The position numbers and the translations under genes are program-made. Positions 879 through 53,898 of a DNA stretch of 64,000 nt are shown piece after piece. A model generated the notes under the pieces. The model did no database searches and had not been told where the DNA came from. It was given only the letters and a program-made list of their open reading frames with translations. Origin of the DNA: an uncultured virus (IMG/VR IMGVR_UViG_3300014969_000015) (taxonomy: Duplodnaviria; Heunggongvirae; Uroviricota; Caudoviricetes); IMG/VR virus record IMGVR_UViG_3300014969_000015. The stretch is one strand, 5' to 3'. The first letter of the stretch is position 1. The number at the start of each line of letters is the position of its first letter.

Positions 879-1247
879 CTACCCTGCCTTGGGGGCTAAC
901 CGAACCAAGACCCATACAGGCCGGTCGGTGATCCGACTGCGGTATATGAAATTACCCGCGCGTACCGTCCAATCGTGTCCATAATCCTCCAGAAAGGCGC
1001 CGTGGCCATGCACGGGATGGAGGGGGAGCGCGGGTCTAACCGCCGGGTTCCGATTTGCGGTTAACGTCCAGACGGATTTTACATCCTTGGCCGAGAAGTC
1101 GACGGGAACAGGCTTTGCGATCGATATCGATCCTTTGGTAGTGAAAGGAATCCACAGCAAGCGCTGCTGATCAGATGATTCATCAGAAGGCGTCTTTGCC
1201 AAAGCCTCAGCGATCTCTCTCGCAAGCTGGGCCTTCCGCGTTTTCAT
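879..1247 (-). CDS. Hypothetical protein with N-terminal shared tag
   Basis: MKTRKAQLAREIAEAL; start overlaps upstream stop (ATGA); stop lies 1 nt before tnpB ATG. Confidence 0.75.
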   Translation of the reverse strand: MKTRKAQLAREIAEALAKTPSDESSDQQRLLWIPFTTKGSISIAKPVPVDFSAKDVKSVWTLTANRNPAVRPALPLHPVHGHGAFLEDYGHDWTVRAGNFIYRSRITDRPVWVLVRLAPKAG

Positions 1248-1783
1248 CTGAGCTTCACATCTTCCGGGGACACCGTCGCAACACCGCCAGGCAGCCGTAC
1301 TTCAACCATCCCGTAAGAGGTGACACGCACGACGTTGCCTGGGTAACCGTTGGCCTTGATTTTGGCACCCGGCTTCAGGCTGAGGATGAGCGCCTTGTGA
1401 ATGTCGTCCTCTAGCTGTGCGTGCGACCTCTCACGCGTGGCGTGATGCAGGACAGATCTTCCATGACCCCTTTTTGTCGAGTGTTGACTTGTTCCTTTTG
1501 AGCGAGGAGACCGACGAATCAAGTACCCTGTTAGGTCCTCCTCGAATTCGGCCTCATCGCCAATGCCGCGGATCTCATTATCAGCGAAGGCCAAAGCGCT
1601 TGAGGCAACCTCGTCGAATGCCTGGGGTGAGTCGTACGCAACGCCCGGACCGAATCCCGCGGGTGCGGGCCGCACGGCGCCTCTCCAAAGCAGCTTGCCC
1701 CCTTGGCTCACCGACGTTCGATAGAAATTGTGATCGTCGTAGGTGACGTTGATTTTGAGGCTTCCTGAATAGCGCTTCGCCAT
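1244..1783 (-). CDS. Hypothetical protein with internal shared tag and small C-terminal beta domain
   Basis: 179 aa ORF containing HHATRERSHAQLEDDIHKAL. Confidence 0.75.
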   Translation of the reverse strand: MAKRYSGSLKINVTYDDHNFYRTSVSQGGKLLWRGAVRPAPAGFGPGVAYDSPQAFDEVASSALAFADNEIRGIGDEAEFEEDLTGYLIRRSPRSKGTSQHSTKRGHGRSVLHHATRERSHAQLEDDIHKALILSLKPGAKIKANGYPGNVVRVTSYGMVEVRLPGGVATVSPEDVKLR

Positions 1784-1941
1784 GGGTTCATCCTTGTTGA
1801 CAAGTAGCGACAGTTTCGCTCATACGGCTGCGTCCCCAACGGCGAATTGCCTCTTTTTAGTGCAGCGTGGGGATCGTACGCGCGGGGATGCTGAAAAACA
1901 ATTACCTCGTCGCTGGAGGCTCTTCGACGGCACGGCTATTC

Positions 1942-2376
1942 TTAACGGGCCCCACAGGGTCCCACGTGAAGTACATAGTACCGGTCGCCGTAAGGCGCGT
2001 CGCGAGCGGCAAAGCTCCCTGGAGGAGGCGGGGCAAATACCTCACATACGTGCACATAGCCCCCTTTAATCAAGCGGATCAGGTTCGCGTGCTCGCGCTT
2101 GCTGTAGGGCATCGCCTTACTGTAGGCCAGTACTTTCGAGATGAACCCCATGCTTCGGTCGTCACGCGACTGCAAGTCCGCCAACGTGGCTGCGAGCGTG
2201 GGAGTCTGCGAGATATTTTTCGCAGGGGCGGCCTTCGCTACCAGTAGAGGCTGGGGGCCAGGTCCAACGGCCGACTCTTGGAGGAGACGTGCCGTGACAT
2301 CGCGTGTCCCCTCAAGAGGGGCTTCCTTTGTCGATAAGAATTCATCGATCTCGCGAGCGATCTTTGATTTTGGCAC
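1942..2376 (-). CDS. Hypothetical protein with N-terminal shared tag
   Basis: MPKSKIAREIDEFL; TGCTAGAAT lies 7 nt upstream of the GTG. Confidence 0.7.
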   Translation of the reverse strand: MPKSKIAREIDEFLSTKEAPLEGTRDVTARLLQESAVGPGPQPLLVAKAAPAKNISQTPTLAATLADLQSRDDRSMGFISKVLAYSKAMPYSKREHANLIRLIKGGYVHVCEVFAPPPPGSFAARDAPYGDRYYVLHVGPCGAR

Positions 2377-3033
2377 GCCTTCGATTCTAGCACCCTAAAA
2401 AGACGTGGAATTACTGAAGAGGTCCCAAACCCCATAGGAGGGGCTCTTTTCGCGTTCTCCTCCCTTCCAGGTCGCTGCGAGAGGGAGGATCGCGAACAGC
2501 TGCGCGAAAGACTTACGGTCTGTAGGCTGTTCCTGCTGTACTCCCCCTACTTACAAAGGACCTAGAAAAAGGACTCTATGGCGCCGCGCGCATAATGGCG
2601 CCTAGTACTCTAGGAGGGTGCTAGGAACAGCTGATCAGGGGGAACAGAGGTGACGGCTGAATTGTGTTTCTAAGTTATTTTGATAAGTTGCGCATGTTCA
2701 GCTGCGCTGAGGGTGTCTGGGCGTACCCCCAGTTTTAGGGGGTCGGCGCTACCGTTAGACAGTTCTTACCATCGGCCCTTCTTCCGTTAGGGCGTTCTAA
2801 TTATTCGCCGCGTGGCTGCAGCCCCCAAGTGTGAAATTCCCTCAGTGTGCGGCTTAGTCCGCCCTCGGTGGGCAGATCCTCCTACTTTTGGGCCGTCGCT
2901 TTACATGTTCTGTTAGGCTGAGGGGCGTGTCCGGCCTTGAGCTATTGGTACGCCGTGCCGTCACGCGGTGGCTGGAGACGTCTGGACGGTCACGGCTCCC
3001 CGCCACGCATCGAGCTCGCGCTGCCCATTCGTC

Positions 3034-3963
3034 ATGAAGGAGAATTTCTTGAAGCGCTCCAAAACCAAGTACGGCAAGAAGGCGACCGAGAAAGTCGCGC
3101 GCACGATGCACGAGTTCAAGCGTGGGAAGCTCAGGAGCGGGGGAGGGGGCAAGGTGACCTCCCGAGCGCAGGCGATCGCGATTGGGCTCTCTCAGGCCCG
3201 GCGAGCTGGTTACAAGGCTCCGCCGCGAGGGCACGCGACGGTGAGCCTCGACGTGCGCACGCGAGAGTACCTTCGCAACATGCGACCGGGTACCGAGATC
3301 GATGCGCGAGGACTCGCGCGGGCGCTAGGCCGGGTCGATCCTCTTGAGGCCGACTACGCCCTAGAGCGCGCGGAGAAGGCGGGGCTTGCCGTCTCCCGGG
3401 ATGGGCGTTGGTTTGGTCCGGCAGGTGGACAGCTGGGGCATGCGAAAAAGTCGGCCAAGCAGATCGAGAGCGAGATCGCAGAGGCGTTGGAGCAATCTGC
3501 GGTATCAGAACCCTCAACGATTACGTTGAGAGATCGCTACAGCGGTAATCCTGTCTTGTTGACCGTCCGTGATGGACGCATTGTCAGCGTGATGGGATCT
3601 GATCCATGGCGTTACATGGGAATGTCGCTTGAAGAGGCCAAGCATTACGCCCGTCACGGAGGACGGGGGCGCGAAAAGAAGACAAGCCCCGCGCACGCGG
3701 TCCGAAAGGCGCGCGCTCCTCGTGTGGCGCTCTATCGTATTCAGCTCACGCCTGACGAGCTGCGTGCCCTTGAGTACGCGCGCGGTCGATACGCGTGGCC
3801 TGATGTGCTTTTGGCATATGCTGCCGATGATGGGTCAATCGCTCTCACGGAGAGCGAGATGTGGCAGTGGGTAGATGACGTGGACAGTGATGACTCTCCA
3901 TTTTCGCTGGCGTCTCCGGCATTCGCCGCGAAGCTTCAGCGCTTTTATGATTCACGTGTCTGA
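3034..3963 (+). CDS. DUF6496-like N-terminal domain protein with internal shared tag
   Basis: KVARTMHEFKRGKLRSG...KVTSRAQAIAIGLSQAR resembles DUF6496; contains GHAKKSAKQIESEIAEAL. Confidence 0.75.
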   Translation: MKENFLKRSKTKYGKKATEKVARTMHEFKRGKLRSGGGGKVTSRAQAIAIGLSQARRAGYKAPPRGHATVSLDVRTREYLRNMRPGTEIDARGLARALGRVDPLEADYALERAEKAGLAVSRDGRWFGPAGGQLGHAKKSAKQIESEIAEALEQSAVSEPSTITLRDRYSGNPVLLTVRDGRIVSVMGSDPWRYMGMSLEEAKHYARHGGRGREKKTSPAHAVRKARAPRVALYRIQLTPDELRALEYARGRYAWPDVLLAYAADDGSIALTESEMWQWVDDVDSDDSPFSLASPAFAAKLQRFYDSRV

Positions 3964-4166
3964 AATGGAGTCGGCTAGGCTGGTCATCCTTGATCATAGT
4001 TGTAAGAGCTGCTCGCGGGTCAGTGGCTGTCGGCCCGGGTCCCGGGTCTGCTCCCATTGCGGCCACCCGCCCGAGGACTTTGCTGACGAGCAGTCGATGG
4101 TCGAGTAGGCGAGGTTCGAAACAACGCTAGTAATCTCGTTTCGAGACCTGCTAAAATCGTGGCAAC

Positions 4167-4673
4167 ATGCGTGCTACTCGCAAGAAACCGACGCGCCCGA
4201 GTTATGACACGAGCACCGGCGAGGGTCAGAAACGTCTGATGCAAGAAAGTGTCGGTCTCGAATATGTTCAGCCTCGCCGCCTCGAAGCAGCGCTTGGTGA
4301 TTACGGTGCTGACCCTCTCGGGCCCGACGCGTATGGGGTGTTTCGTTGGCGGATGGTTCCATCAGGCGATGTCGTCGACAAGACCGAGCACGATCGCCGT
4401 CTGACGCGGGGTAGCGAAGCCAAACGGCATCACGCGGCAAAAAAGTCGACAGTTGAATTGGATCGCGACATCGCCGAAGTTCTGGCGAAAGATTATCGCG
4501 TCTCAGTGCGTGTGGAAGGCGCGCTCAAGCCGGTCTATGTTTCCCCTTGGATGACACGCGCGCAAGCTGAACATGCAGCAAGAAATCATAAGGCCATGAT
4601 CCGAGATCGTGGTTGGACGTCAGTTGTCGAGATCGAGGACAAGAGCGGTGCTGTAACGAGACTTCCGCGATAA
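4167..4673 (+). CDS. Hypothetical protein with internal shared tag
   Basis: HHAAKKSTVELDRDIAEVL; TGCTAAAAT lies 9 nt upstream of the ATG. Confidence 0.75.
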   Translation: MRATRKKPTRPSYDTSTGEGQKRLMQESVGLEYVQPRRLEAALGDYGADPLGPDAYGVFRWRMVPSGDVVDKTEHDRRLTRGSEAKRHHAAKKSTVELDRDIAEVLAKDYRVSVRVEGALKPVYVSPWMTRAQAEHAARNHKAMIRDRGWTSVVEIEDKSGAVTRLPR

Positions 4674-4697
4674 AAACTCCGCGATAAAAACGACGAC

Positions 4698-5075
4698 GTC
4701 ACGGAGGACGGGGGGGGCGCGAAAAGAAGACGAGTCCCGCGCATACGCTCCGAAAGGAGCGCACTCCTCGTGCGATGCTATTCAGTTCACGACTGACGAG
4801 CTGCGTTCCCTTGTTTGCAGCATCCATTTCCGTAGGCCGTCCAAGGCGGGATCAGTGTGGGCGTCCGGCAGCTCGGCGCAAAGCGCGGTTCGAGGATCAT
4901 GCCTCTCTCGCGCTCCGCGGCGCTCAGGAGCGCCCCGGCGCCCCGGCGCGGCGGAGGCGCGCCATGAAGGGCTCCTTGCCCGTGTCAATCGCGCTCACGG
5001 AGAGTGAGATGTGGCAGTGGATAGATGACGCGCTTTTATGATTCACGTATCTGAAAGTTGGCTAGGGCGGTCTCT
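4698..5075 (+). pseudogene. Degraded, interrupted duplicate of 3655-3990 (3' end of the DUF6496-like gene)
   Basis: Shared blocks gtcacggaggacggggg..gcgaaaagaagac, tcaatcgc.ctcacggagag.gagatgtggcagtgg and gcttttatgattcacgt.tctgaaa, with indels. Confidence 0.75.
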
Positions 5076-5959
5076 GTAGTCTCGGCCGCATCCTCGACCA
5101 TCCAGGGCTCCCATAGGCCCTCGGGTGTCCAGCGCGTGATAAAACGCCTAGCGTCAACGGGTATGGAGCCGATCAAACCCGCAGAGAATGGGCTGCCTAG
5201 CGGATTGTTTCCGACATACGTCACGTCAACAGCAAGATTCATCCCCATCTGAAGGGTTTCAAAGTTGATATAGAGGTCAAAGGCCGTCGGGGCAAACATT
5301 GCACCGGGGACTCCTCCCGCTTGTGCGAATTGCGATCGACTGCCGATTATTAGATCCTCGACTATCCAGTCTTCTGGATTTCCTCCAATGAGCAGCCTGT
5401 GAGGGCGAACCGTATGGCTTTGAGGGCGTAACGTAATTCTTGCCGTCTCTCCTGGTAAAATGTTCATGTTACTTGATAACGAGAGGACGGTGCGATCACG
5501 CTCCAGGAACCCCTTGGAAGAAGCCCTCTGGGGAATCTGCTCGAAGCCGATCTTGAGCACACTAAGATTTCGGACTTCGTCGATTGCGAAGAGCGCCTCA
5601 TGGCCCCCTCGCGGATCCGCGCCCTGCCTCCAGATGAAATTGCATACAACGGGGGCGGCGGAAGCGCTTTTGATTTCCGAAGCAATTCGACGAACAGATG
5701 CGTGATTGAACGGGTAGTTATCCGGTGCCCAGATGCCGCGCGGGGTCATGTCATCAAGGCACGAGATACCTACCGTGTTCCAGTAACTCGGCACTTCCTT
5801 CTCGAAGAAGGCATACATCCTGCCGTCGATCTGAACGAGGAGGATCGTAGCCGTTTCCCACGGTCTTTCCTGGATGCTTATCTCCCGTACTCCCTCCAGT
5901 GTATGCAGTCCGGCGCAGTCTTTCAGCACCTTCGGGCGCCAGGAGTCGAGGCCGCTCAT
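5036..5959 (-). CDS. Hypothetical protein with C-terminal beta-rich domain
   Basis: ATG 5959 overlaps the upstream stop; C-terminal ITLRPQ..RPHRLLIGG..DWIVEDLIIGSRSQF looks like a beta-sandwich. Confidence 0.65.
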   Translation of the reverse strand: MSGLDSWRPKVLKDCAGLHTLEGVREISIQERPWETATILLVQIDGRMYAFFEKEVPSYWNTVGISCLDDMTPRGIWAPDNYPFNHASVRRIASEIKSASAAPVVCNFIWRQGADPRGGHEALFAIDEVRNLSVLKIGFEQIPQRASSKGFLERDRTVLSLSSNMNILPGETARITLRPQSHTVRPHRLLIGGNPEDWIVEDLIIGSRSQFAQAGGVPGAMFAPTAFDLYINFETLQMGMNLAVDVTYVGNNPLGSPFSAGLIGSIPVDARRFITRWTPEGLWEPWMVEDAAETTETALANFQIRES

Positions 5960-6309
5960 GAAGATCGCGAGCCTTCCCTTGAAATGAAAGTGCGCAGCTT
6001 CCACTTTTTGGGAGGCACTTGCCGGAGGGCATCTTCGACGCTTGTGTGCTGAGAATCTCGAGAAGGTCCCAGCTCGTCGAAGAAGCTGACCTGCCAACGA
6101 CCCACAGTTTTTGTTGAGGGGTGAACGATCGCCGACTCATCGTGACGGGTCCGAGATGAAAATTCCGCCCCGCGTAGGGGTCCTACGACCTTCCAATCGC
6201 AGCTCTTGATCCCGAACCCAAGTGTTCGGCAGACGACGCGAAGAGGCGACTTCCGGCTCTCTAGGGCCTCTGCAATTTCTTGATCGAGTTGTGCTCTACG
6301 CTTGCTCAT
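5956..6309 (-). CDS. Hypothetical protein with N-terminal shared tag
   Basis: MSKRRAQLDQEIAEAL; ATGA overlaps at both ends. Confidence 0.75.
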   Translation of the reverse strand: MSKRRAQLDQEIAEALESRKSPLRVVCRTLGFGIKSCDWKVVGPLRGAEFSSRTRHDESAIVHPSTKTVGRWQVSFFDELGPSRDSQHTSVEDALRQVPPKKWKLRTFISREGSRSS

Positions 6310-7004
6310 AGTTTTTCTCCGAAGCGATAGCCCCGAACCCACGTCGCGACGTCGTCGTGCCCGAGTGTGCTCGTCATACCGATATGATCCACGAGACTTG
6401 GCACATGCACGTAACTGGGGCGCCCTAGCTCAAGCATCGAGGCTCCAACAACCGCGTCGACTTGCTGGTTCATTCGGTGCTTGGCGAGGTGCTTAACGAA
6501 GCGGCGGTGCTGCATGAGGTCTTTAGCTGCGGAGCGCGGGATACAGAGTGCGAGGGCTCCACAGTAGTCCCAGCCCAATCGACACTCGTTCCAGCCGTCT
6601 ACCGATCCTGGAGGCACCATGTTGGTGGCGACGTAGGGCGATAGGAAGCCGGTGCGGAGCTTTTGTCGTGCGGCAGCTGTGGCTCGCAGTGTATGTGCCG
6701 CGCCGGGTCCCCAGATCGCGTCGTCCTGCACGATGAGGAGCCAGGAAGCCGTGGTCCGTGTTAGAAGGTGCTGGAGAGCATGCCTCCAATTGACGAAGCA
6801 GCCGCGTGGCGTGGCATGATCGATGGTGGTGGTTCTTGCGTCCTTGGGCCTTGAAACCTGGTCCCAGGTGCCGGGCTCGGCGAACATGTGCACCCGCTCA
6901 TTGAAGCCGGCTTGGCGCAGGCTCGAGAGCGCGCGGTGAAGCGTAGGTGCGCGTCGCGGTGCCGTGGTCATCGCGATCGCGAGGGTGCCCGCGTCGTTTT
7001 TCAT
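6306..7004 (-). CDS. Glycosyltransferase, GT-A fold
   Basis: LAIAMTTAPR start, WLLIVQDDA (DxD-like) and PSLVDHIG..STLGH. Confidence 0.7.
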   Translation of the reverse strand: MKNDAGTLAIAMTTAPRRAPTLHRALSSLRQAGFNERVHMFAEPGTWDQVSRPKDARTTTIDHATPRGCFVNWRHALQHLLTRTTASWLLIVQDDAIWGPGAAHTLRATAAARQKLRTGFLSPYVATNMVPPGSVDGWNECRLGWDYCGALALCIPRSAAKDLMQHRRFVKHLAKHRMNQQVDAVVGASMLELGRPSYVHVPSLVDHIGMTSTLGHDDVATWVRGYRFGEKL

Positions 7005-7038
7005 CTTGACTGGGGTCTCCGTCGGCTAGCATACCACC

Positions 7039-7917
7039 GTGGTGGCACTGCAGATACAACTGGAAGACCTTCGAGGACCCGAGTGGCGAGCCCTCTTCGT
7101 TGGCGATCGTCCCCGCTTCGCGACCGCGACATCCGTCCGTCTCCTGGATGCGCATACGCTTGTTTGTGGTTCCCTTCTTGCTCGTAAGATTTATCTGATC
7201 CGCTTCGATCTAGCGTATGGCCGATATACCGTGATCGACGGTAGGGGCACCGTCTACAAGGACCGCTCTACGGAGACGGATCTTTGCGACACCGATGGGC
7301 AGGGCGGTGTACTCACCAGTAATTGTGAGGGCGGAAACATGAGCCTCTATCGGGTCTCCGGGGACAAGATCCACTACGAGCGCGATCTGTCCGCGGATCT
7401 TCCTGGAAACTACTGTCATGGTGCCCGGTTCTGTGGAGGGGGTGTGGTCGTGGCCACGGCTCTTCGAGAGCCGCGAGGCGCGCATTTCTACGAGGCTTCC
7501 TCGATGAGGAAGCTGCTCTACGTGAAGACTGAGAAGCTTCCCAAGGACATCTGTTTCTTGCCAGGCAAGCGCGGGGTCCTTGTCACGACCGATGGGGCTC
7601 CGCTGTCTGCGACCTCAGGGACGAGGAATGTCTCAGAGCTCCAGCTCATCGAGTATGACCTCGTGGGCGGGACCAGCACGGTTGTGGATCGGCAGATGTG
7701 CGAGGCACGCCAGCTTGATTCTGCGGCTTTCTATGAGGGACGGCTTTACGTCGTTGACAGCTACGGAGGCCGTGTCCTGGTAGTGGATGCGCGCACGTTA
7801 CGGCAGGTTGATCAGATTGATGGTTATGACTTTCCACACGGTGTGGATGCCAGGTACGGGATACTGGCAGTTTCCTGTTACGGAACGAACTCGATCCACG
7901 TGCGCCCGATCCGTTGA
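7039..7917 (+). CDS. Beta-propeller-like hypothetical protein
   Basis: 292 aa with blade-like repeats (RLYVVDSYGGRVLVVD, FPHGVD, LAVSCYGTNSIHV). Confidence 0.6.
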   Translation: MVALQIQLEDLRGPEWRALFVGDRPRFATATSVRLLDAHTLVCGSLLARKIYLIRFDLAYGRYTVIDGRGTVYKDRSTETDLCDTDGQGGVLTSNCEGGNMSLYRVSGDKIHYERDLSADLPGNYCHGARFCGGGVVVATALREPRGAHFYEASSMRKLLYVKTEKLPKDICFLPGKRGVLVTTDGAPLSATSGTRNVSELQLIEYDLVGGTSTVVDRQMCEARQLDSAAFYEGRLYVVDSYGGRVLVVDARTLRQVDQIDGYDFPHGVDARYGILAVSCYGTNSIHVRPIR

Positions 7918-7966
7918 TGGGTGCGGGGCTGCAGGATCCTCAGGATCCTCAGGTCATGGGTATCCC

Positions 7967-10455
7967 GTCCCGTACGTCAACCGCGCGGGCAAGCTCTAGC
8001 ACCTTCAACTGTCTCTCGTCCCGAACGTTAGGTGCTCGGGCAAGCTCTATCACTACTCCAAGATGTCCGGTCCCGTCCCGAACGTTAGATGCTCGGGCAA
8101 GCTCTAACACCGTCGGATCGATGGTGGTCCCTCTTGTCCCGAACGTCAACCGCTCGGGCAAACTCTATCATCCGCCTAAGCGTCCGCGTGTCGGTTGTCC
8201 CGAGCGTTAGGTGCTCGGGCAAGCTCTATTATGAAGTGACCACTCATACGTCCCGAGCGTTAGGTGCTCGGGCAAGCTCTATCACGGACAGTCATCCGTC
8301 AGGACGTTCGATGATCGTCCCGAACGTTAGGTGCTCGGGCAAGCTCTATCACATGCGCAACTCCAATGTAGCAATTCGAGTTGGCGACGTCCCGAACGTT
8401 AGGTGCTCGGGCAAGCTCTATCACCACGAGGCCGTTAGCCGCTCACCTTCAAGGACTGTGTGTCCCGAGCGTTAGGTGCTCGGGCAAGCTCTATCACCGT
8501 TTGGAAACGAGGCGTCGCATCGGCGCGGGTGGATTCATCCCGAACGTTAGGTGCTCGGGCAAGCTCTATCACTTGGCCGCCTGCCGTATCGGTTCGGGTC
8601 CCGGCGTCGTCCCGAACGTTAGGTGCTCGGGCAAACTCTATCACCCGATGTTATCACAAGGTGTTAGGCTTGGGCCTACTGGTCCCGTCCCGAACGTTAG
8701 GTGCTCGGGCAAGCTCTATTTCACCGGCGAGTCTGGTGGCCAGCGCATCGAGGACGCCGTCGTCCTGAACGTTAGATGCTCGGGCAAGCTCTATCACACG
8801 CCAGTGGCTCGGTGATCCAAAGCCCCGGCATGAGCGTCCCGAACGTTAGATGCTCGGGCAAGCTCTATCACGAGTGCTAGCATTGACCGCTGGAGTCCCG
8901 AACGTTAGGTGCTCGGGCAAGCTCTATCACGGCGAGCCATTGCGCGACCGTGAGCGTACACATTTCGTCCCGTCCCGAACGTTAGATGCTCGGGCAAGCT
9001 CTATCACGAGGATGCACTCCAGTCCCGAGCGTCAGCTGCTCGGGCAAGCTCTATCATGCGCGGTTTCGCCAGCTGGAAAGCGCTCACTGTCCCGAGCGTC
9101 AGCTGCTCGGGCAAGCTCTATCATGCTCCGCAGTGCGGACAGGTGTGGTTCTTCACTCGCGTCCCGTGCGTCCCGTGCGTCAGGTGCTTGGGCAAGCTCT
9201 ATCATCCAGACCGACGAAGGTCCCGAGCTTCGGGTGCTCGGGCAAGCTCTATCATGCCGTGGGGCCTTCCGTTCGTCCCGAGCGTCAGGTGCTCGGGCAA
9301 GCTCTACCATTCACATCGACGCGCTCGATACAGGTCCCGAGCGTCAGGTGCTCGGGCAAGCTCTATCACACAGGTCGCACTTGCCCTTCGGGGCATCAAG
9401 CCAGCTGTCCCGAACGTTAGATGCTCGGGCAAGCTCTATCACGGTCGATGTTCGGGATCACGGTGCGCGTAAACAATCGTCCCGAACGTTAGATGCTCGG
9501 GCAAGCTCTATCACCTCGACAACGCGGGCCCCGGACCAGTCGCCTACTTCGGCCCCGAACGTTAGATGCTCGGGGCAAGCTCTATCACGTCGCGGCGGGA
9601 CTGCTCAGCCAGAGCGACGCCATGTCCCGAACGTTAGATGCTCGGGCAAGCTCTATCACGGCCGTGAGAACGGCGTGCGCAACGAGGTCTGCCTCGTCCC
9701 GAACGTTAGGTGCTCGGGCAAGCTCTATCACCCGGCGGCCGCTCCCAAGCTCATAGCCGAGATCCGCGGTCCCGAACGTTAGATGCTCGGGCAAGCTCTA
9801 TCACATCAAAATCTTGGCCGATGAGGTTCCGGCTTTCGCGTCCCGAACGTTAGATGCTCGGGCAAGCTCTATCACGCGCTGCAGATGCAGGCTGGTACCG
9901 TCCGCGACGCTGTCCCGAACGTTAGATGCTCGGGCAAGCTCTATCACGTCTACATTTCCGTCCAACCATCTAAGCGAGCACTTGTCCCGAACGTTAGGTG
10001 CTCGGGCAAGCTCTATCACTCAAGCCCCGCCTTGATCGCCGCTCCGCGAAGGATGGTCCTGAACGTTAGGTGCTCGGGCAAGCTCTATCATCACCTGACC
10101 TACCAAGTCGGGAAGCCCCGGCATCACGTCCCGAACGTTAGGTGCTCGGGCAAGCTCTATCACACGGTTGTCAGGGGCGTTCGCCAAAGCCATTGTGTTG
10201 TCCCGAACGTTAGATGCTCGGGCAAGCTCTATCACGGAGTGGATCCGAATGTCCAACCTGCCCACCCTACTGTCCCGAACGTTAGATGCTCGGGCAAGCT
10301 CTATCACATCCGATTTCGGAGAGCGGGCCGCCAACGATGGTGCCCGTGTCCCGAACGTTAGATGCTCGGGCAAGCTCTATCACCGGGCACTTACGATCGC
10401 GAGCGACGACCTGTGACGCGTCCCGAACGTTAGATGCTCGGGCAAGCTCTATCAC
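7967..10455 (-). CRISPR. CRISPR array, 37 repeats and 36 spacers; 36-nt repeat GTGATAGAGCTTGCCCGAGCA(T/C)CTAACGTTCGGGAC in transcribed orientation
   Basis: The + strand shows GTCCCGAACGTTAG(A/G)TGCTCGGGCAAGCTCTATCAC repeated with unique spacers. Repeats degenerate at the left end; leader and promoter lie at the right end. Confidence 0.97.
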
Positions 10456-17264: not shown

Positions 17265-19132
17265 GCCGCCCCAATATCACGGATGATACTGTCAAGGGCC
17301 TTTCTTTTGCCCGCGCTTGCGTCCTCGATCAACAATCTTCCTCGCATCTCCGTAAGAACCACAGCTGGGATGATCGCTTCAAAGCAGCCCTAGCCGCGAT
17401 CGATTTCATCGTTGGTTCGCATAAGCGCTCGATGAAGAAAGCTCCTCGGAACAAGCTGTAATGGCTAAACAAGATCCTAGGCTTGGAAGACTGCATCTTC
17501 TATGTTGGATGCCGAGGGGTAATCCACCGCAGGGTCGCTGTAAGCCGCCCTGCGCGCTACACGAGTTAAACTGTGAAGCTTGTAAAATTTGCGGCAGATT
17601 GCCAGGAGCCCCCGGCGGATGACTGGAGCCCACAATGATATTGCGAGCACGCTGGATCGGCCATCTTCCTAGGCCCGGTGAGTACCTCATGTCTGAGGTG
17701 CGGCCTCGCTACGCATACCGCATCGAGCAGGTGACTCCGGTGTCACCGGCCGTTCGCTGGGATCCTTCGGCCAAGGCCGAGCTTCGGGATTTACGGCTCT
17801 GCGTTTCTCGGGTCTCGGTAAACTCCGTGACCCGAGATGCGCACGTTCACGGCTGGCGGTGGGATCGGCGCGTGGCGCGGCACAGTGCCCGCCAACTGAC
17901 CATTCGTGGACATTTGGTAGAGCCCCAGGGGCGGAGACTTGCGTGAGGGCTGTTTCATCGACATCGATGCAGTCGATCGCTCCTGGCGCAGGTCGCGAGC
18001 CCGTTTGGCGTACCCGTTGTAGTGTCATAACCCAGCCGAGAGTGAAACATGCGTATTGAAATATCCACCGCATTTGAGACGAGCCACATCGAGGACTACA
18101 AGACTAAAATCACGGCCAAGATCGTGAACAATAATGGTGTGGTGCTGTGCGAAGGCGAGGATGTCGACGCTTGGCCGGACCCCAACAAGTATCGAGCCTC
18201 GGCGAAAAAAGCCACGCAAGCGGCGCTGCGCAGGTTCGAGGAGTTGCTCAACAACGCGCGGGATGTTGCCAAGAAATCAGGGCTGTATTGATGAATGGGG
18301 AGGCTAGAGTGACGAAGATTCGAGTTTTTGATGAGACCTGGGACGTCCCCCGGGGTTTTGGCGCGACGTATCGGCGAGTGATCCGCGGTCACCGAACCTT
18401 GATCGCAGCGGGTGATCTCGGCAGGCTCAGCTCTGAGGTGATCGACGGGCTCGGACTCATCGGCTATCACGTGACTCCTGAGCAAGTTTCCAGCTGGGAC
18501 CTCCACAGGCGTGTGGAGGCGGTTGTCTATGCGGTGACCGAGCATGCGCGGGCTTCGGATAATCCGGTACCGCGACACCCCCGGCCAAGTTGGCTGCCCG
18601 AGCACCCGTGGCAAGGTCCTGAGCGGGGTGAGGGCGTGCTTGCAGGACCTAGCGGCACGCAACTTCGGTCTTGTGAACGGGGAGCCCATCGGTTCAACGC
18701 GTACGGTTTCTGCAGGGACTGCGGCGCGAAACGACGAGCCCAGCCGTAGCCGTGGGGCCCGTGGCGCGCCGCGAGAAGAAGTAACGACGGACGCAAACGA
18801 AGGAGATTAAGATGTCGCAGTTCGCTAAACTTAATAAGCTCGACGACTTTGAAGCTGCCTGGAATCGCGTTCTTTCTACAGAGTCCGTTGGACTTGATTT
18901 CGAGGAGGCTGAGGATCGAGCCGTTTTTCGTGGGCGTTTGACCGCGGCGATGAGCAACTTGCGCGTTGACGGTATGCGCCGTCTTGCAGAGGCTCTCGCA
19001 GTGGGTCATCCGGGGCGCTCACGATCCCAAATTATTCGCAGTATTGCGAACGCGTGGATACGTTTGGAGCGAGCTGGTAGCAAAATGAAAGGCGGTTAGG
19101 GTTATGACCCGCTGCATTTGTTCCTGTCAAGC

Positions 19133-23426: not shown

Positions 23427-23606
23427 GAGGGTGCCGTGAGCAGGGCTCCAAGAACAGGGGATGCCGAGAGCGAGGGTGCCGTGAGCAGGACCCCAAGAAA
23501 AGGGGATGCCGAGAGCGAGGGTGCCGTGAGCAGGGCTCCAAGAACAGGGGATGCCGAGAGCGAGGGTGCCGTGAGCAGGGCTCCAAGAACAGGGGATGCC
23601 GAGAGC
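23427..23606 (+). repeat. 45-bp coding tandem repeat x4 (EGAVSRAPRTGDAES) at the start of ORF 23409..23885
   Basis: Visible directly in the sequence. Confidence 0.9.
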
Positions 23607-35773: not shown

Positions 35774-36100
35774 ATGGAGGTAGCGAAAAACACTTCGCGA
35801 GTCGTGAACGATCTGACGACCAAGGAGCAGAAGGCCGTGCGCACCGCGCTGCGGTTCCTGCGGCTGCGCGTCGGCGCCTGGGGGCCGCTGGCCAAGGCGC
35901 TGCGGTACGAGTGGGACAGCATCCATAAGGTCGCCACCGGCAAGCGGGCCGTTACGCCCGCGCTGGCGCTGCGGGTGGCACGGTTCGCCGGGATCGCCAT
36001 GGACGAGCTACTCGCGGGGCAGTGGCTGTCGTCCCGGGTCTGCCCCCACTGCGGGCACCCGCCCGAGGACTTCGTCGACGAGGAGACGGTCGTCGAGTAG
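35774..36100 (+). CDS. Xre/HigA-like HTH protein with C-terminal CPHC motif
   Basis: LAKALRY....I.KVATGKRAVTPALALRVAR...RVCPHCGHPPEDF. Confidence 0.7.
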   Translation: MEVAKNTSRVVNDLTTKEQKAVRTALRFLRLRVGAWGPLAKALRYEWDSIHKVATGKRAVTPALALRVARFAGIAMDELLAGQWLSSRVCPHCGHPPEDFVDEETVVE

Positions 36101-36167
36101 GAGATGGCAACGAAACCAAAATGGTTGCGATATTTCGTTACAGCCTCGGCGTGATAGGATCGAGGAC

Positions 36168-36641
36168 ATGCCGAAGACGAGACGAGAACTCGACCGCGAG
36201 ATTAACAAAGTGCTTAGTCCGAGATTGGGTGTGGCGCGCGAGGCAAACGCAGGCGACCCCATCCGCTCAACCCCCAGGGATTCTCCTGCAGACTGGGTCT
36301 GGGCCTATCACGTCACTCCAAACGAATTCCTACCGTCGATCGCCAAGGACGGGCTGAAACCAGAGCGCCATCCTCATGTAAGGGGCGCTCCGGTAATCTT
36401 CGTTGAGCCTGACCTTGAAGGCGTGCTGCCCTATCACATCCGAAGTAAGACCTCCGTCCTCCGGTTTCGGACCCCTGGATTCGGAGATACGGAAGATGGG
36501 GAAACGGTACTCTACTCAGGAAGTCAACGCAGGCTGTCGCCCCCTGACCCTCCGTTCGTCGGTCGCCCTGGAAAACATGGCGTGATTCCCCCGCAGCGCC
36601 TTCAAATACTTCGTGACAACGCCTTCGTCTGGCTAACCTGA
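36168..36641 (+). CDS. Putative ADP-ribosyltransferase-fold protein with N-terminal shared tag
   Basis: MPKTRRELDREINKVL, then YHVT...LPSIAKDGLKP...IFV and IPPQRL, an ART/Tpt1-like pattern. Confidence 0.55.
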   Translation: MPKTRRELDREINKVLSPRLGVAREANAGDPIRSTPRDSPADWVWAYHVTPNEFLPSIAKDGLKPERHPHVRGAPVIFVEPDLEGVLPYHIRSKTSVLRFRTPGFGDTEDGETVLYSGSQRRLSPPDPPFVGRPGKHGVIPPQRLQILRDNAFVWLT

Positions 36642-37670: not shown

Positions 37671-39035
37671 TTACGTCAGCCTCTGCGGAAAGCAGGGCGT
37701 GCTCAAGAGGAGCGTGGCGGTATTCAGGGAGATTCCAACCTGGGAAGCCGCGCCGGTGGAGGGTTTGACCGCGGTGAGCCTCCCAGGATGGGAGCTCGTG
37801 TCCACGTAGTACGGGATTCCAGCTATCAGTCCGCCGGTGTCCGTGATCGCCGCCCACTGTGCTGGGGTCAGCTCCACCTTGCCAGCGAACTGCACCACGG
37901 CACGGTTGCCGTTCGTGATGTCGAACCCGACGACAAGGCCAACGGCTTGAGAAGCCTCCAGAGAAACGTCGCTGGTTGCCTCTCCCACGTGATCGGGGCC
38001 ATCTACTCTGACGGCTGCCCCAAGGAGGGGGACCGCGGAGAAGGCTGCCAGGAACGTTAAATCCCCCAATCGCTGCTGTGCCGTAGTGGGAGCAACGAGC
38101 ATCGTTGTGGGTGACAGGCCGACGCCGATTTGACAAACGAAGACGCCAGGTGAGGATGGAGCGGTTTCTGTGATCTTGGCGAAGTTTGGGAACAGCGCGA
38201 GGTAGTACGGGAGGCCCAGCACGAGCCCACCGGATTCTCCGGTGAGGGCGTCCCACTGTGCCGTCGTGAGCGTCAGCGGACCGGAGGTTTGGATCTGCAC
38301 TGTACCGTCTGCGTTGATGGAGGCTACGAGGCCGTTGACCTGCGAACCCTCCAGATCGTTCGTAGCGGCAGCAGGCTGGACAGTCGTGATGCCACCGGGC
38401 GCGCTTATCGCACCGACGAAGACGGGTTGGCCAAGGGCGGCTGCCAAGCTTCCGCCGCGGAAAGCTGCCTTGAAGGTGCCCTCGTTCAATCCAGAGCGCA
38501 GCGGGTTCCCCTCGGTACCGTTGCCCAGGATCGAAGTTCCATCCGTGACGACTGTGACGTCGCTGGTGTGGAGTGGGCTTACATCGGTTCCGTTGCCTAG
38601 GATCGAGATCCCGTCCGTGACGACTGGAACCGCACCGGTGTGGAGGGCGTTCCCTTCGGTCCCATTGCCCAGAATTGAGATCCCGTCCGTGACGATTGGA
38701 ACCGTGCCGGTGTGGAGGGCGTTCCCTTCGGTACCGTTGCCCAGGATCGAGGTCCCGTCCGTGATGACTGGAACCGCACCGGTGTGGAGGGCGTTCCCTT
38801 CGGTACCGTTGCCTAGGATCGAGGTTCCATCCGTGACGACTGAAACCTCGCCGGTGCGCAGGGGGTTCCCTTTGGTACCGTTGCCCAAAATCGAATCGCC
38901 GTCGGATACTACGGCTGCTTCTGTCGGTGGGGGTGCTGCCGGAGGAGGCGCTTGCGGGTCTTGCGCGTCCCGCGAATTTTCGCGATCGCAGCTACTGCGG
39001 ACCTGGCGCCCTCCAATAAGTTTTGCATCTGCCAT
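37671..39035 (-). CDS. Repeat-containing putative structural/fibre protein
   Basis: Six 24-aa repeats (TDGTSILGNGTEGNALHTGAVPVI, 72-bp period) and two copies of a G.L.LT.AQW.A.T...GL..G.PYY domain. Confidence 0.75.
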   Translation of the reverse strand: MADAKLIGGRQVRSSCDRENSRDAQDPQAPPPAAPPPTEAAVVSDGDSILGNGTKGNPLRTGEVSVVTDGTSILGNGTEGNALHTGAVPVITDGTSILGNGTEGNALHTGTVPIVTDGISILGNGTEGNALHTGAVPVVTDGISILGNGTDVSPLHTSDVTVVTDGTSILGNGTEGNPLRSGLNEGTFKAAFRGGSLAAALGQPVFVGAISAPGGITTVQPAAATNDLEGSQVNGLVASINADGTVQIQTSGPLTLTTAQWDALTGESGGLVLGLPYYLALFPNFAKITETAPSSPGVFVCQIGVGLSPTTMLVAPTTAQQRLGDLTFLAAFSAVPLLGAAVRVDGPDHVGEATSDVSLEASQAVGLVVGFDITNGNRAVVQFAGKVELTPAQWAAITDTGGLIAGIPYYVDTSSHPGRLTAVKPSTGAASQVGISLNTATLLLSTPCFPQRLT

Positions 39036-45404: not shown

Positions 45405-45529
45405 GTTCTAGTTTCCTTTTCGTTATGGCGGAAGCTCACGTTTTCTTCCTGTTGACGCATCCCCGCGAGATTCGTCTTACTCTCGAAGGTCCAGAATGAA
45501 ACAGCCACTACTTTGGCTAATTAAAGCCG

Positions 45530-45603
45530 TACGCGTCGCGGGATTCGAACCCGCACTTGAAGGCTTTTAAGGCCTTTGTCTCTAACCGTTGGACTAGACG
45601 CGC
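45530..45603 (-). tRNA. tRNA-Leu(UAA), short variable loop, no encoded CCA
   Basis: Acceptor GCGCGTC/GACGCGT, anticodon arm AAGGC-CTTAAAA-GCCTT, T arm GCGGG-TTCGAAT-CCCGC, discriminator A. Confidence 0.88.
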
Positions 45604-50336: not shown

Positions 50337-50699
50337 TCATTCGGACAAAGCCTCCGGCCATGACGCTTTGACGATCGGCCACAGCTCGGCGAGTTTCTTG
50401 CCAGCGGCCTGGCCGATCGCACGTCCGCCCGCGCCGCTCGGCGGTCGGTAGTAGACCTCGGAAAGCTTCTTCCAGAACGCACGAATCACGCCGCCGTTCG
50501 ACGACTCGAACGTGTAGCTTCCGTCGGGATTGTTCTTGATCGTGTCGAGCAGTGCCGTCTGGGTGCGCCGGATGATGCTGCCCAGGCCACGGGGCAGGCG
50601 TGTACGTAGGATAACGGCGGGAGGCGCCGTGTGTGACTTCGCTGCGACGAGCGCCTCCTCGATCTCACGATCGAGCTGCCATGAAGGCTTCTTGGTCAC
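50337..50699 (-). CDS. Hypothetical protein with N-terminal shared tag
   Basis: MTKKPSWQLDREIEEAL. Confidence 0.7.
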   Translation of the reverse strand: MTKKPSWQLDREIEEALVAAKSHTAPPAVILRTRLPRGLGSIIRRTQTALLDTIKNNPDGSYTFESSNGGVIRAFWKKLSEVYYRPPSGAGGRAIGQAAGKKLAELWPIVKASWPEALSE

Positions 50700-51194
50700 A
50701 GCTACTCCTTGCCCGCAATGCCGTGTGACATCACCGCTGCTGCCTCATCTGCTGCCGGCTGCGGGTCACGTGGCTCAATTGATCGAGGCGGCGATCCGCT
50801 TGAGCGTCGGCACACTCGCCACGCTGCTGCCTCATCTGCTGCCGGCTGCGGGTCACGCGTCGGCAGGTCCAGCTCAAACCAGACCGGCGCGGTATTGCGG
50901 TGGATGCGACGACGGCGGCTCATGTGGCCCTCGGCAGATTTGGCTGCGAGGGCAGCCGCGCTGTTGGTGTGCTGGGATGGCATCTACGCGGCACTTTAGC
51001 AGACTGGGGGCATAACTCGCAATTATACCCCGTTAGAAATTTCTGGTGCAAGTTGTTGATACTTAGTGACAACAGGGGTCGTGTTGTCACAGATAAGTTC
51101 GAGGCTTGAAACGGTGCCATGCGAAGGGCCGTCGCCGTCGGTGGAGCCGTGACGACGGCCGTCGGTGGAGCTTGGCCGTGGTAGGATCAAGGCC

Positions 51195-51824
51195 ATGCCC
51201 AAATCAAGGATCGCTCGCGAGGTTGACGAGATTCTCGCCAACGGATCCGAGGCCGAGGCAGGATCCGAGACGATCGATGAGCTGAGGCCAAGACCCAAGA
51301 AGCCGAAATCGCTCACCAACGCAATCATCGAGAAGGCCGTCATGGCCGCTCGGCTATACTTTGGTTCCCTGGGCGGAAAACTTAGGCCGCGCGACGAGAA
51401 GAAGCTCCACGATCGGATGATTCGAGCCATCGAGATGGTCGTCAGGAAATCGAATGGGCTCCTCGACTACGGTAACGCCTACAGGCAAATTCACGACGAG
51501 GCAATACGACGAGGCCGCATCCTGGCACTGCCAGGGGATCCACATCTAAGGACGCGAGCTCGCCGGGCGAAACGGGGGGGGGTGCGGCGAAATGTGCCGA
51601 GGACGAATCGGTGCTTCAGGGTATTAGGGATAACTAGGTTCCAAGGTCCTGTGCTGGAGGTGCTAGGATCCTCAGGATGCTTCGCTACGCAAGTTTCCAG
51701 AACTGGACCATTGGCCAACTCCTCATTGGACTTGGCCGCAGAGCGGAACCTATACGTGGATCTATTCCATCAGCATGGATCACAGACGCCAGTGAATCCG
51801 AGATCCGAGACGCTGCCTCCCTGA
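51195..51824 (+). CDS. Hypothetical protein with N-terminal shared tag
   Basis: MPKSRIAREVDEIL; TGGTAGGAT lies 7 nt upstream. Confidence 0.65.
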   Translation: MPKSRIAREVDEILANGSEAEAGSETIDELRPRPKKPKSLTNAIIEKAVMAARLYFGSLGGKLRPRDEKKLHDRMIRAIEMVVRKSNGLLDYGNAYRQIHDEAIRRGRILALPGDPHLRTRARRAKRGGVRRNVPRTNRCFRVLGITRFQGPVLEVLGSSGCFATQVSRTGPLANSSLDLAAERNLYVDLFHQHGSQTPVNPRSETLPP

Positions 51825-52243
51825 GCGGCGCGGTCCAATTGGAGATTCAAGCTGTGCGGGAAAAGGAGTCGCCAGCTGAGATAAGAAGGGCTGTTAACCA
51901 AATTTTGCAGGAAAATAAGCCGCAGCGTCAGCGCCGTACGTAGAGTGCAAGCGCGGCCGCTAGCAACCCTGCGCAGAGCACGAACAGCGCCCCCGAAGGG
52001 CCGTTCGCCCGAGGGGTCGAGATCGCTCGGTCGTGTGCGCGCCATGAAGTAAGCGCCGATTCGCCTTTGTTATTCGGTGCGCCCCAGATCAGCGGTCACT
52101 CCTGCCACCTCACTTGCGACGTCGACGGCGCGCTCCGCGTCGTCGCGGCCGTAGACGTGGCCGATCAACTTCTTTGGTGGAAACGCATGTGTGAGGATGT
52201 CATCGATCTCTGGGGGCGCTTCGTCATCGGTCCGTCCTCTACT

Positions 52244-53056
52244 CTACTCTTGTACTTCGAGAGCGCCGTCTCGTGTCCAAGCTAACTCTCCGCGCCTAAC
52301 AGCGGCATTAATGTGCGGCATCCGGTACCCAAGTTTGCTCAGAAAGTAGGGAGTGGCGTGGTAGGGCCCCGCCTGGGCTACGACGGCCTGCAGCGGTGTC
52401 GGTCCGACTCGTGCCAGCTTCGGCTGCTGTAGTCCGGGCTTGCGGCCCGAGCCTGGACGGGGGGCGCCTCGGCGCTCGCCCTTTGCCATGGACTTCGAGC
52501 GTAACGATGCCCCAATAGCGGAATTTAGCGCGGCACGATCGAACCAAGCCTGATGCTCGAAGGCTATTTCGCCGTCGGCGGCGATGACCTGCACTACATC
52601 TCCTACAAGACGATGTGTGAAACCTGGAGCGGCTGGTTGTGCCGTGGATCTAATCTTGCCTTGGACATCCACATAATATGCCTCGGGCGCAGATCTCTTA
52701 CTATGGGGCACCGCGTAAGAGTGCGGTGTCTTCTGCTTGCGCGCATGAGAGTGCTTGTACTTTGGGTCAAGCGCCTCGTCGATCTCGCGCCTGATCTGCG
52801 CATGAGACTTCTTGGGCGGCGCGCTGACTGGCCTTGTCCACTCCACGTCGTCGGGGTGCCCAACGAAGGTATAGTCACCTGGGCCGAGTCTCATCGGACG
52901 CATCCGTAGGTCACGCCCTACAATTCCCTCATCGCTCCGACGCGTGGGTCCGTAAACGTAGACTTCTTCAAACTCGACCTTGTCGCCTGGGCCGCGACTC
53001 TGAATTAAATATCCGATCTTGGGCTGGTTGGGCTGGTTGCGCGCACTCTTTGCCAT
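52244..53056 (-). CDS. Hypothetical protein with internal shared tag
   Basis: PKKSHAQIRREIDEAL; TGGTAGAAT lies 9 nt upstream. Confidence 0.75.
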   Translation of the reverse strand: MAKSARNQPNQPKIGYLIQSRGPGDKVEFEEVYVYGPTRRSDEGIVGRDLRMRPMRLGPGDYTFVGHPDDVEWTRPVSAPPKKSHAQIRREIDEALDPKYKHSHARKQKTPHSYAVPHSKRSAPEAYYVDVQGKIRSTAQPAAPGFTHRLVGDVVQVIAADGEIAFEHQAWFDRAALNSAIGASLRSKSMAKGERRGAPRPGSGRKPGLQQPKLARVGPTPLQAVVAQAGPYHATPYFLSKLGYRMPHINAAVRRGELAWTRDGALEVQE

Positions 53057-53409
53057 GGCTCGAGGATTCTACCATCTCGCAGGGACCCTTGGTTACGAAA
53101 CGGCTAAGATGGCGCGGTTTCGTTACCTTGGTCTACCTGCTCGACGACGGTCTCTTCATCGACGAAGTCGTCGGGCGGGTGACCGCAGTGGGGGCAGACC
53201 CGGGCCGAGAGCCACTGGCCGGCGAGCAACGCGTCCATGGCGATTCCGGCGAACCGGGCCACCCGCAACGCGAGCGCCATACGACGACAAGACCTGGGAC
53301 CTTGCGCCTGTGCGGGAGCGCAGGGAAGACAACCGCGGTGGCGGTTCGAAGTGATCTCTGTGGCGGTCATCAATACCGTACATGGCCGGATGTGGGTAGG
53401 ATGGTTGCC

Positions 53410-53898
53410 ATGGCGCAGCTCCCGAAAAAGTCACCCGCCCAACTTGAGCGCGACATCCACGCCGCGCTCAAGCTCGAACCTCCGCGCCTAAAGCGCCTGG
53501 GATACGTCACGGGGCTTGCTGTCTATCTCGTATCGGGGGAGTACGTCCGTAACCACATCGATCCGGACTTTACCCAGGGCGGTAACGAGGGTGCGTATCC
53601 CGGCTACAACCCGCCAGGCGAAATTTGGATCGACGACGCAATGCACGTCCTCGATCGCATCGCCACCATCTTTCACGAGATCGTCGAGCGCAATCTCATG
53701 ATGTGCCAAGGCGTTGGTTACGACAAGGCACACGATACCGCACTCGAGCGCGAGATGAAGTTCCGCAAGGAGCTCATGCGTCAGCGCCCTACCTCGACGG
53801 ACCTTCGTCTCGTTACCAAGGCGCTCCGGCCGTATGCCCAGGAGGCGTTGCCCTCAGGCAAGAGGCCTGGCAGAGCGAGTCGAACCATCTCCGGATGA
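53410..53898 (+). CDS. Putative metal-binding (HE..H) protein with N-terminal shared tag
   Basis: PKKSPAQLERDIHAAL; EIWID...FHEIVERNLM...YDKAH. Confidence 0.7.
   Translation: MAQLPKKSPAQLERDIHAALKLEPPRLKRLGYVTGLAVYLVSGEYVRNHIDPDFTQGGNEGAYPGYNPPGEIWIDDAMHVLDRIATIFHEIVERNLMMCQGVGYDKAHDTALEREMKFRKELMRQRPTSTDLRLVTKALRPYAQEALPSGKRPGRASRTISG

Follow-up and report, generated by a model that had tools for sequence, protein, structure and literature searches.

A short peptide shared by unrelated proteins of giant, probably viral soil elements: a module-swapping junction and putative virion-loading address

What does one short peptide do on a dozen proteins that otherwise show no resemblance to each other? 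This question is raised by a 64,000-nucleotide stretch of DNA from an uncultured virus (IMG/VR record IMGVR_UViG_3300014969_000015), the whole of which is called the window here. A sequence-only reading had noticed that a tag of about 15 residues recurs in about 12 of its proteins, and had proposed that the tag docks diverse cargo onto one partner such as a capsid or scaffold. The tag is real and clade-wide, and no description of this peptide, of this clade or of shared motifs on unrelated phage proteins was found in the literature searched, which was mostly open-access and taken without supplements. We consider the tag, with a probability of roughly 55%, to be both an address for virion loading and a recombination hub; the tags mark a clade of giant soil elements that are probably viral. 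Module swapping at the tag, a second linker peptide and a common promoter word are additions to the sequence-only reading.

In a six-frame search, 11 window proteins carried the tag consensus K-K-[ST]-x-x-Q-L-x-R-E-I-x-x-x-L, each in frame in the open reading frame (ORF) that had been named for it; the positions given previously were ORF ends, and the 16-codon tag windows have the coordinates given in Table 1. The 11 sites scored 32.5-45.7 bits against a full 16-column profile and 15.3-40.4 bits when each was left out of it, compared with a maximum per shuffle of 7.9-14.8 bits when the residues of all six frames were shuffled 20 times, and a regular expression gave 11 matches in the real sequence and one in 20 shuffles. 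A twelfth, weak site scored 19.7 bits, the next best site in the window reaching 14.0 bits, and its gene has the promoter word common to other tagged genes. Seven of the 12 window tags are N-terminal. With the tag cut out, the window modules showed no mutual BLASTP similarity at E<=0.01. At residues common to two tags, 176 of 396 codon pairs were identical (0.44, against 0.42 expected from codon usage). Synonymous identity among tags is thus at chance level, and the tag is therefore conserved at the protein level, which is what the sequence-only reading had maintained. The exception is the pair of genes 2376(-) and 51195(+), which share 52 nt at 79% identity over promoter and tag and are a recent partial copy. 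Region 844-8045 was recovered as one unitig in a rhizosphere sequencing run, possibly the one from which the window derives, and pieces of close strains are present in three other soil runs.

The anatomy of the tag was taken from orthologues of the 53410 gene, a family less biased by the tag search itself, whose logo (in %) reads K78 K90 [ST]86 x x Q83 L95 x R96 E90 I98 x x x L90. An AlphaFold model of the 53410 protein is helical at residues 9-20, the helix starting just past the Ser, and the S/T-x-x-Q pattern fits a helix capping box. Helical moments of the tags (0.44-0.89) were above the background median of 0.28 in 11 of 11 cases, in agreement with the basic patch and amphipathic helix described earlier. 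The hydrophobic face is narrow, consisting of L, I and L, and orthologues of 53410 retain the polar K, Q, R and E at 83-96%; because of this polar conservation, the tag would lie on a specific protein surface rather than on a membrane. The motif as first worded needs refinement: H-A-x proved to be a separate linker, and E-A ahead of the last Leu is not invariant among tags. A match of the tag profile to a p53 fragment among PDB sequences (best E 0.044) was rejected as chance.

To see how far the tag reaches, a profile of 23 tags was searched, and matched 168 representatives at E<=0.001 among 1.84 billion. Among the 150 matches listed of these 168, 125 were tagged proteins, 22 were translated CRISPR-type repeats and 3 were unrelated large proteins. 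The last two groups were dropped ahead of counting, and the 128 proteins analysed comprise the 125 and three cluster members, one protein among them (P0094) being the 4167 protein of the window itself. Of the 128, 85 have an internal tag, 35 an N-terminal and 8 a C-terminal one, so the N-terminal and between-domain placements noted before were both found and a C-terminal one has to be added; 8 of the 128 carry at least two tags. The cargo is diverse, as was claimed, and largely nameless. Pfam matched only 5 of the 125 tagged representatives (DUF6496 twice, sigma70 region 4 in P0014, YajC and a weak KOW), and PHROGs matched 14 of 103 tagged proteins, one of them named (ParB-like, the module of P0057). 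No metabolic enzyme family was found in the 12 window cargoes or the 125 representatives, none of the catalogued polyvalent domains (LPD, MPTase, ArdC, MuF etc.) gave a Pfam match at E<=0.001 in those 125, and cluster look-ups of them returned no informative names. No transmembrane-like stretch was seen in any of the 128 proteins. All 12 window cargoes are net basic (median +0.05 per residue vs 0.0, p=9e-5).

Outside the clade the tag is rare, in accordance with the sequence-only reading. Five bacterial genomes (23.3 Mb), picked for having the best DNA-pattern matches, contained 3 weak tag matches, and a scan of 596 Gb of GTDB sequence with a pattern that fits 64 of the 128 clade tags gave 10 single matches, none within a tag cluster. 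Scans of IMG/VR matched 11 loci, which were taken as chance because each had at most one tag-like site. No member of the clade turned up in the IMG/VR, GenBank phage and PLSDB sets searched. In related loci (L numbers), tags or weak tags lie at L005:5175-5849, L013:13390-13842, L009:7660-7932 and L004:1235, where the cargo includes a small basic protein, a Fis-like helix-turn-helix (HTH) protein and a peptidase-like protein.

Comparison of the two sides of the tag among the 128 proteins gave 97 pairs that share a module on one side only. In 39 of these pairs (34 proteins) the shared side had at least 50% ungapped identity (median 85%), while the other side had a median identity of 8% and a maximum of 19%. 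The 128 proteins comprise 60 N-side and 79 C-side families, and the 79 proteins having both sides make up 73 different N/C family pairs. For example, P0077 and P0106 are near-identical up to the end of the tag and unrelated beyond it, P0105 and P0106 share the part after the tag, and one C module is paired with five different N modules. The window's own proteins take part: 4167 shares its N module with P0081 and its C module with P0035 and P0143, where these modules have other partners, the N part of 3034 recurs with other C parts in P0137 and P0108, and the N module of 52244 recurs in P0025 with another C part. At the protein level, the tag is a two-sided junction for module swapping, and we infer homologous recombination within the tag-coding stretch.

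Of the 93 tags that are not N-terminal, 69 follow the linker (G/R)-R-S-H-A-T-(K/R)-K, counted as H[ASP]x. Away from the tag, H[AS]T was observed 51 times against 7.0 expected, and untagged window proteins had 3 against 3.3. H-[AS]-T-K is a second linker that marks module borders. It may be speculated that a cut after H-A gives a T/A/P-K-K start, as Met removal does.

Two cargoes had been singled out as ART-like and metal-binding. The cargo of 36168 resembles Tpt1/KptA at E 0.01 (PDB 9ld4) and Pfam PTS_2-RNA at E 0.37, both weak matches, and the ART-like label is weakly supported. The metal-binding one fared better, with HExxE present in 120 of 120 homologues of the 53410 protein together with invariant H108 and E115. 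Its best fold matches were zincins, all of them weak: PprI (Z 4.8, rmsd 2.8, 75 aligned), ERAP1 (4.8), lugdulysin (4.5), and Wss1, CapP and selecase (3.7-3.8). In this family the tag lies ahead of the core in 108 of 120 members, behind it in 3 and below threshold in 9; both L013 copies have a C-terminal tag. The tag is conserved across orthologues at 53-94% identity. A core-only tree, made from 48 of the 112 N-tag rows, every one of the 5 C-tag rows and 4 untagged ones (57 in total, with two truncated rows omitted and three weak tags counted as N), placed the C-tag rows in one branch (99/89) and the untagged P0391 and P0392 between the N-tag and C-tag groups, with one loss within the N group; since the root is a midpoint root only, this placement corresponds to two gains or a move. 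The HExxE gene adjoins a block of membrane-protein genes in L006, L008, L010 and L011, and a distant untagged homologue (hhalign 97.9%) lies two genes ahead of a major capsid protein gene in podovirus MW202524.

Tagged genes also have an upstream word in common. GnTARRAT occurs 7-9 nt ahead of the start in 7 of 12 tagged genes and in none of the 90 other predicted genes of the window, replication and regulatory ones included (p=4e-8, any in-frame start being permitted in the count). We take the word to resemble the extended -10 element of a housekeeping sigma factor, and if it is one, its spacing implies leaderless mRNA. In relatives, the looser hexamer of this word lies ahead of the HExxE gene in 7 of 9 loci examined and ahead of tagged L013:8070, and also ahead of the untagged genes L004:2363, L008:3529, L012:2772, 9063 and 12086, which are of the membrane-anchored family, beta-sandwich or fibre-like. 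An HTH/Zn-ribbon gene is present in three copies, two of them decayed or partial (3875-4108, 35774-36100 and 53104-53373). Each copy immediately precedes the promoter word of a tagged gene and the gene itself, forming a duplicated upstream cassette.

What kind of element carries these genes? The window encodes an integrase, a VapE-type primase/helicase piece, a RadA-like ATPase, a sigma54 activator, an RNA polymerase alpha-C-terminal domain (alpha-CTD) protein, an AlkB-like oxygenase, an RNA ligase and one tRNA. The window's contig is 127,005 bp long. The untagged 5036 gene has a C-terminal jelly-roll domain, homologues of which mark the clade on contigs of up to 501,972 bp, several being 240-460 kb. 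Its model is confident (pLDDT 89.2), and its top fold matches were tied at Z 5.4-6.4, all below 8, with capsid chains of HCIV-1, HHIV-2, SPV1 and P23-77 among them: HCIV-1 6h9c_Z (Z 6.3, rmsd 3.2, 97 aligned) and 6h82_b (5.8, 3.8, 87), SPV1 6oj0_T (5.7, 4.0, 105) and P23-77 VP16 (5.4, 4.2, 96). Homologues that consist of this domain alone (230-250 aa) and have long N-terminal arms are candidate capsid proteins, and the jelly-roll is suggestive of a virus, not proof of one. One of these candidates, P0260, had no match in GenBank phages or PLSDB; one search aimed at short homologues of the domain found none, and the ESM Atlas returned unnamed clusters only. L012:9063 is an unconfirmed candidate for a second beta-rich capsid-type protein (pLDDT 0.41). 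The jelly-roll family (5036-5959, L013:11992-13170 and P0154-P0273) occurs in single, double and multi-copy forms, and some members are fused to KaiC/RadA-type ATPase domains. Related loci contain blocks of paralogous C-terminally membrane-anchored proteins and beta-rich proteins. Such blocks lie at L004:2363, L006:1309-2789, L008:1015-9967 and L012:2772-9986 and contain repeated [VI]G words, which presumably resemble viral protease cleavage sites.

From this we propose the following mechanism, in which the tag is a bipartite address label employed throughout the genomes of the clade. As read from the sequence, the tag consists of a basic KK, an S/T-x-x-Q helix start and a three-turn amphipathic helix (L-x-R-E-I-x-x-x-L), and it has been retained, irrespective of its position, by many small basic proteins that are not related to each other. 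At particle assembly the helix would plug into one conserved partner, or into other tags, so that the tagged proteins would be loaded in the DNA-containing core and delivered along with the genome. Because the tag-coding stretch is shared, recombination in it would swap N and C modules, which is observed at the protein level and would occur at the DNA level by the crossover proposed above. The result would be a combinatorial library of deliverable proteins, in which any captured domain becomes cargo once fused, and our observations suggest that captured host-type domains do become tagged. The tagged genes would be co-expressed from a leaderless extended -10-type promoter common with virion-like genes. 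More speculatively, the H-[AS]-T-K linkers may be cleavage sites that release modules, the cutter perhaps being the tagged HExxE zincin-like protein. Support for packaging is indirect, coming from the shared promoter and the gene context. The most complete version, in which giant (250-500 kb) single-jelly-roll viruses of soil bacteria carry combinatorial cargo, with the helix both loading dozens of proteins in the core and serving for crossover, HAT linkers cut by the tagged zincin so that single effectors are set free upon infection, and leaderless co-expression with the virion, is doubtful as a whole.

A number of observations weigh against virion loading. An extended -10-like word would suit early genes equally well, it is missing before 5 of the 12 tagged genes and ahead of the window's fibre-like gene (37671-39035), and the 7 cases amount to about 4 independent ones because three genes follow copies of the HTH/Zn-ribbon gene and two share the 52 nt. 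The promoter-sharing genes are virion-like by our inference and match no named family, and the looser hexamer also precedes L012:10916 and L011:2603, which are not structural-looking. No capsid, terminase, tail or packaging ATPase family was found among the 95 window proteins, the window being 64 kb of at least 127 kb. The best jelly-roll scores (Z 6.3-6.4) were tied with the non-viral GOLD and enterotoxin domains, and Foldseek gave no match at E<=0.001 for the jelly-roll model or for the other model searched. None of 120 jelly-roll homologues is tagged, so the idea that the tagged proteins are bait copies of the element's own capsid was not supported either. The nine HExxE homologues below the tag threshold include 4 that are clearly untagged, the library's 50% clustering removes pairs sharing both sides and thereby inflates the share of swapped pairs, and the partner that would read the tag is a hypothetical one.

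These points leave room for other explanations, the foremost being that the tagged proteins are effectors expressed early, which the tag brings to a single machine or site inside the cell, such as host or element RNA polymerase, the nucleoid, a replication compartment or an anti-defence hub, with nothing packaged. The presumed extended -10 likeness and leaderless spacing of the promoter word, the ART-like, ParB-like (P0057) and sigma70 region 4 (P0014) modules, the alpha-CTD protein and sigma54 activator of the window and the basic charge of the cargoes would all suit it. It is possible, if rather unlikely, as the same word precedes membrane-anchored, beta-sandwich and fibre-like genes in relatives and is absent at the 90 untagged window genes, and the conserved tagged HExxE gene lies within a structural-looking block. 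The tag might also need no separate reader at all, and condense basic cargo with DNA by self-association, into a nucleoprotein core or a cytoplasmic condensate. Its amphipathic helix is similar in length to encapsulation peptides, which self-associate via coiled coils according to PMC7221423, some tagged proteins have two or more tags and all window cargoes are basic. The narrow L, I, L face with its conserved K, Q, R and E would be more typical of a docking motif, and the tag profile matched designed coiled coils among PDB sequences only at E 0.4-2.4, which makes self-association improbable.

Very improbable, in our view, is a degron or protease-adaptor signal that sets protein lifetime or processing: a short, portable tag coupled to a candidate cleavage linker, one tagged core protein having a zincin-like metal site, would fit such a role, but known degrons are mostly terminal, and this tag is position-free and mostly internal (85 of 128). 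The least probable is that a DNA repeat or recombination site gives rise to the motif as a by-product and the peptide has no function. Crossovers do map to the tag, and one gene pair shares tag DNA at 79%; however, identity at synonymous positions is at chance level (0.44 vs 0.42), every tag lies in frame on the coding strand, and orthologues at 53-94% identity retain the tag, which can stand at either end of one and the same domain. This explanation is already largely refuted.

Several known systems resemble this one in part. In Rhs (DPxGL) and CdiA (VENN) proteins a conserved peptide marks the site at which recombination exchanges variable modules. Those proteins are single large carriers in which only the C-terminal toxin is swapped, next to an immunity gene; in the present system, swapping affects both sides and involves many separate small genes, and the motif is found at protein ends as well. 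Polyvalent proteins, as described by Iyer et al. 2017 (PMC5512222), combine disparate small domains in varying orders, are predicted to be packaged and delivered early, are likely processed by zincin-like peptidases and include ART and ParB-like domains. The tagged proteins likewise combine disparate domains in varying architectures; in contrast, they are of small size, mostly 40-400 aa, and a single fixed tag and linker connects their modules, a term (linker) that is absent from the main text of that paper, and only ParB-like and weak ART-like modules and a zincin-like fold at Z<=4.8 were found. Encapsulation peptides of microcompartments (PduP18, PduD18, PduL20) are amphipathic helices of about 18-20 aa at the cargo N- or C-terminus, for which self-association is suggested (PMC7221423). 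The tag is also a short amphipathic helix on unrelated cargo, but this cargo forms no metabolic pathway, the tag is mostly internal, its polar pattern is strongly conserved and it has the role of a module-swap junction. No Pfam match to a microcompartment shell family, or to an encapsulin, whose shell gene would lie beside its cargo genes, was found among the 95 window proteins, which represent part of the genome.

One precedent invoked by the sequence-only reading was T4 internal proteins with their capsid-targeting sequence (CTS), and here the likeness in function stood while the defining features, position and glutamate, did not. T-even ip loci exchange cargo via conserved flanking sequence. 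The CTS is a short shared peptide that sends unrelated small proteins into the head, an N-terminal propeptide of 10-20 residues removed by a cut after Glu (PMC5694885). Like the CTS of IPI-III and Alt, this tag is a short shared peptide on unrelated small proteins, which it would likewise direct into the particle. Unlike it, the tag is position-free and swaps modules on both sides, and neither T4-like or HK97 head genes nor a prohead protease were found among the 95 window proteins. The position at which consensus tags have Glu is S54/A19/T6/D6/E5 (%) in 111 tagged HExxE orthologues and E, K, A or Q in window tags; a T4-like cut after Glu is ruled out because E-A ahead of the last Leu is not conserved in the 53410 orthologues. 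The tag is not a T4 capsid-targeting sequence, failing on the N-terminal position and on the glutamate, and the system is a member of none of CTS, encapsulation peptides and polyvalent proteins. As for the jelly-roll domain, its likeness is to Helvetiavirae and Singelaviria (HCIV-1, HHIV-2, P23-77) and to portogloboviruses (SPV1), with scores tied with non-viral folds. Genomes known from these groups are tens of kb, whereas contigs of this clade are far larger (240-502 kb). The hallmarks of Singelaviria and Helvetiavirae are two major capsid proteins and an FtsK-ATPase (PMC8812541; realm definitions as in PMC12714852 and PMC8812541).

Table 1. Tagged genes of the window, their promoter-like words and the neighbouring jelly-roll gene
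Feature	Coordinates	Strand	Tag window	Description
Tagged protein, 122 aa	879..1247	(-)	1200-1247	N-terminal tag; overlaps stop of 1244-1783 gene
Tagged protein, 179 aa	1244..1783	(-)	1388-1435	Internal tag after HHAT linker; second HST linker upstream
Tagged protein, 144 aa	1942..2376	(-)	2335-2382	N-terminal tag variant PKSKIAREIDEFL
Promoter-like word GCTAGAAT	2384..2391	(-)		7 nt ahead of start of 1942..2376 gene
Tagged mosaic, 309 aa	3034..3963	(+)	3442-3489	DUF6496 - HAT - module - tag - module - HAV - module
Promoter-like word GCTAAAAT	4150..4157	(+)		9 nt ahead of 4167
Tagged protein, 168 aa	4167..4673	(+)	4437-4484	Internal tag after HHAA
Untagged gene	5036..5959	(-)		Directly downstream of tagged 5956-6309; C-terminal jelly-roll beta-sandwich 5138-5470
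Tagged protein, 117 aa	5956..6309	(-)	6262-6309	N-terminal tag
Promoter-like word GATAGGAT	36153..36160	(+)		7 nt ahead of 36168
Tagged protein, 157 aa	36168..36641	(+)	36168-36215	N-terminal tag; cargo weakly like Tpt1/KptA ART fold
Tagged protein, 120 aa	50337..50699	(-)	50649-50696	N-terminal tag
Promoter-like word GGTAGGAT	51180..51187	(+)		7 nt ahead of 51195
Tagged protein	51195..51824	(+)	51189-51236	N-terminal tag variant PKSRIAREVDEIL; 3' end overlaps next gene
Promoter-like word GCTAGGAT	51662..51669	(+)		7 nt ahead of 51677
88-aa protein	51677..51943	(+)	51860-51907	Weak tag near C-terminus
Tagged mosaic, 270 aa	52244..53056	(-)	52769-52816	Internal tag, then HSHA linker
Promoter-like word GGTAGAAT	53066..53073	(-)		9 nt ahead of 53056
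Promoter-like word GGTAGGAT	53395..53402	(+)		7 nt ahead of 53410
Tagged core protein, 162 aa	53410..53898	(+)	53422-53469	N-terminal tag on conserved HExxE zincin-like domain

Further features of the window and its relatives were recorded. Tagged genes 51195-51824 and 51677-51943 overlap by about 150 nt in different frames, and the 3' part of the former may be read-through. At 4706-5030 lies repeat D17, in which the final module of the 3034 gene recurs in decayed and frameshifted form. A CRISPR-like array at 7967-10455 has 37 repeats of 36 nt, spaced regularly at 71-76 nt in the right half and irregularly at 50-81 nt in the left. No cas family was found among the window proteins, and its spacers had no match in the window or the fetched loci beyond one 15-nt chance match; other soil runs contain the same array repeat with other spacers. 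Short tandem repeats lie at 23378-23647 (45 nt), 26383-26608 (18), 61594-61788 (39) and 38491-38975 (72), and part of the fibre-like gene recurs in inverted orientation at 61785-61823. The sole Rfam match in the window was tRNA-Leu(TAA) at 45529-45603, a rare-codon tRNA in an element of 59% GC. In the 333-kb relative, L013:4135-6660 and 18404-18925 contain Rsr/TROVE-like, RNA-ligase-like and release-factor-like genes, named by eye, and IF-3 lies at L008:11571 (NCBIfam match). The sigma54 activator matched plasmid sequences at 43-45% identity, which indicated no host; Myxococcota as host is an unconfirmed guess of ours.

The newness of this system lies in a short cargo-addressing peptide that, unusually, is also the junction at which modules are swapped on both sides. 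If our reading is true, the virus makes any captured domain deliverable in one recombination step, and a single motif suffices to list the many uncharacterised effector modules of the clade. With its reader in hand, a label of 15 residues that functions at both termini as well as internally could be put to use as a handle for loading proteins. Tag and promoter together are markers for a clade of very large elements, which may greatly extend the genome sizes of jelly-roll viruses of prokaryotes.

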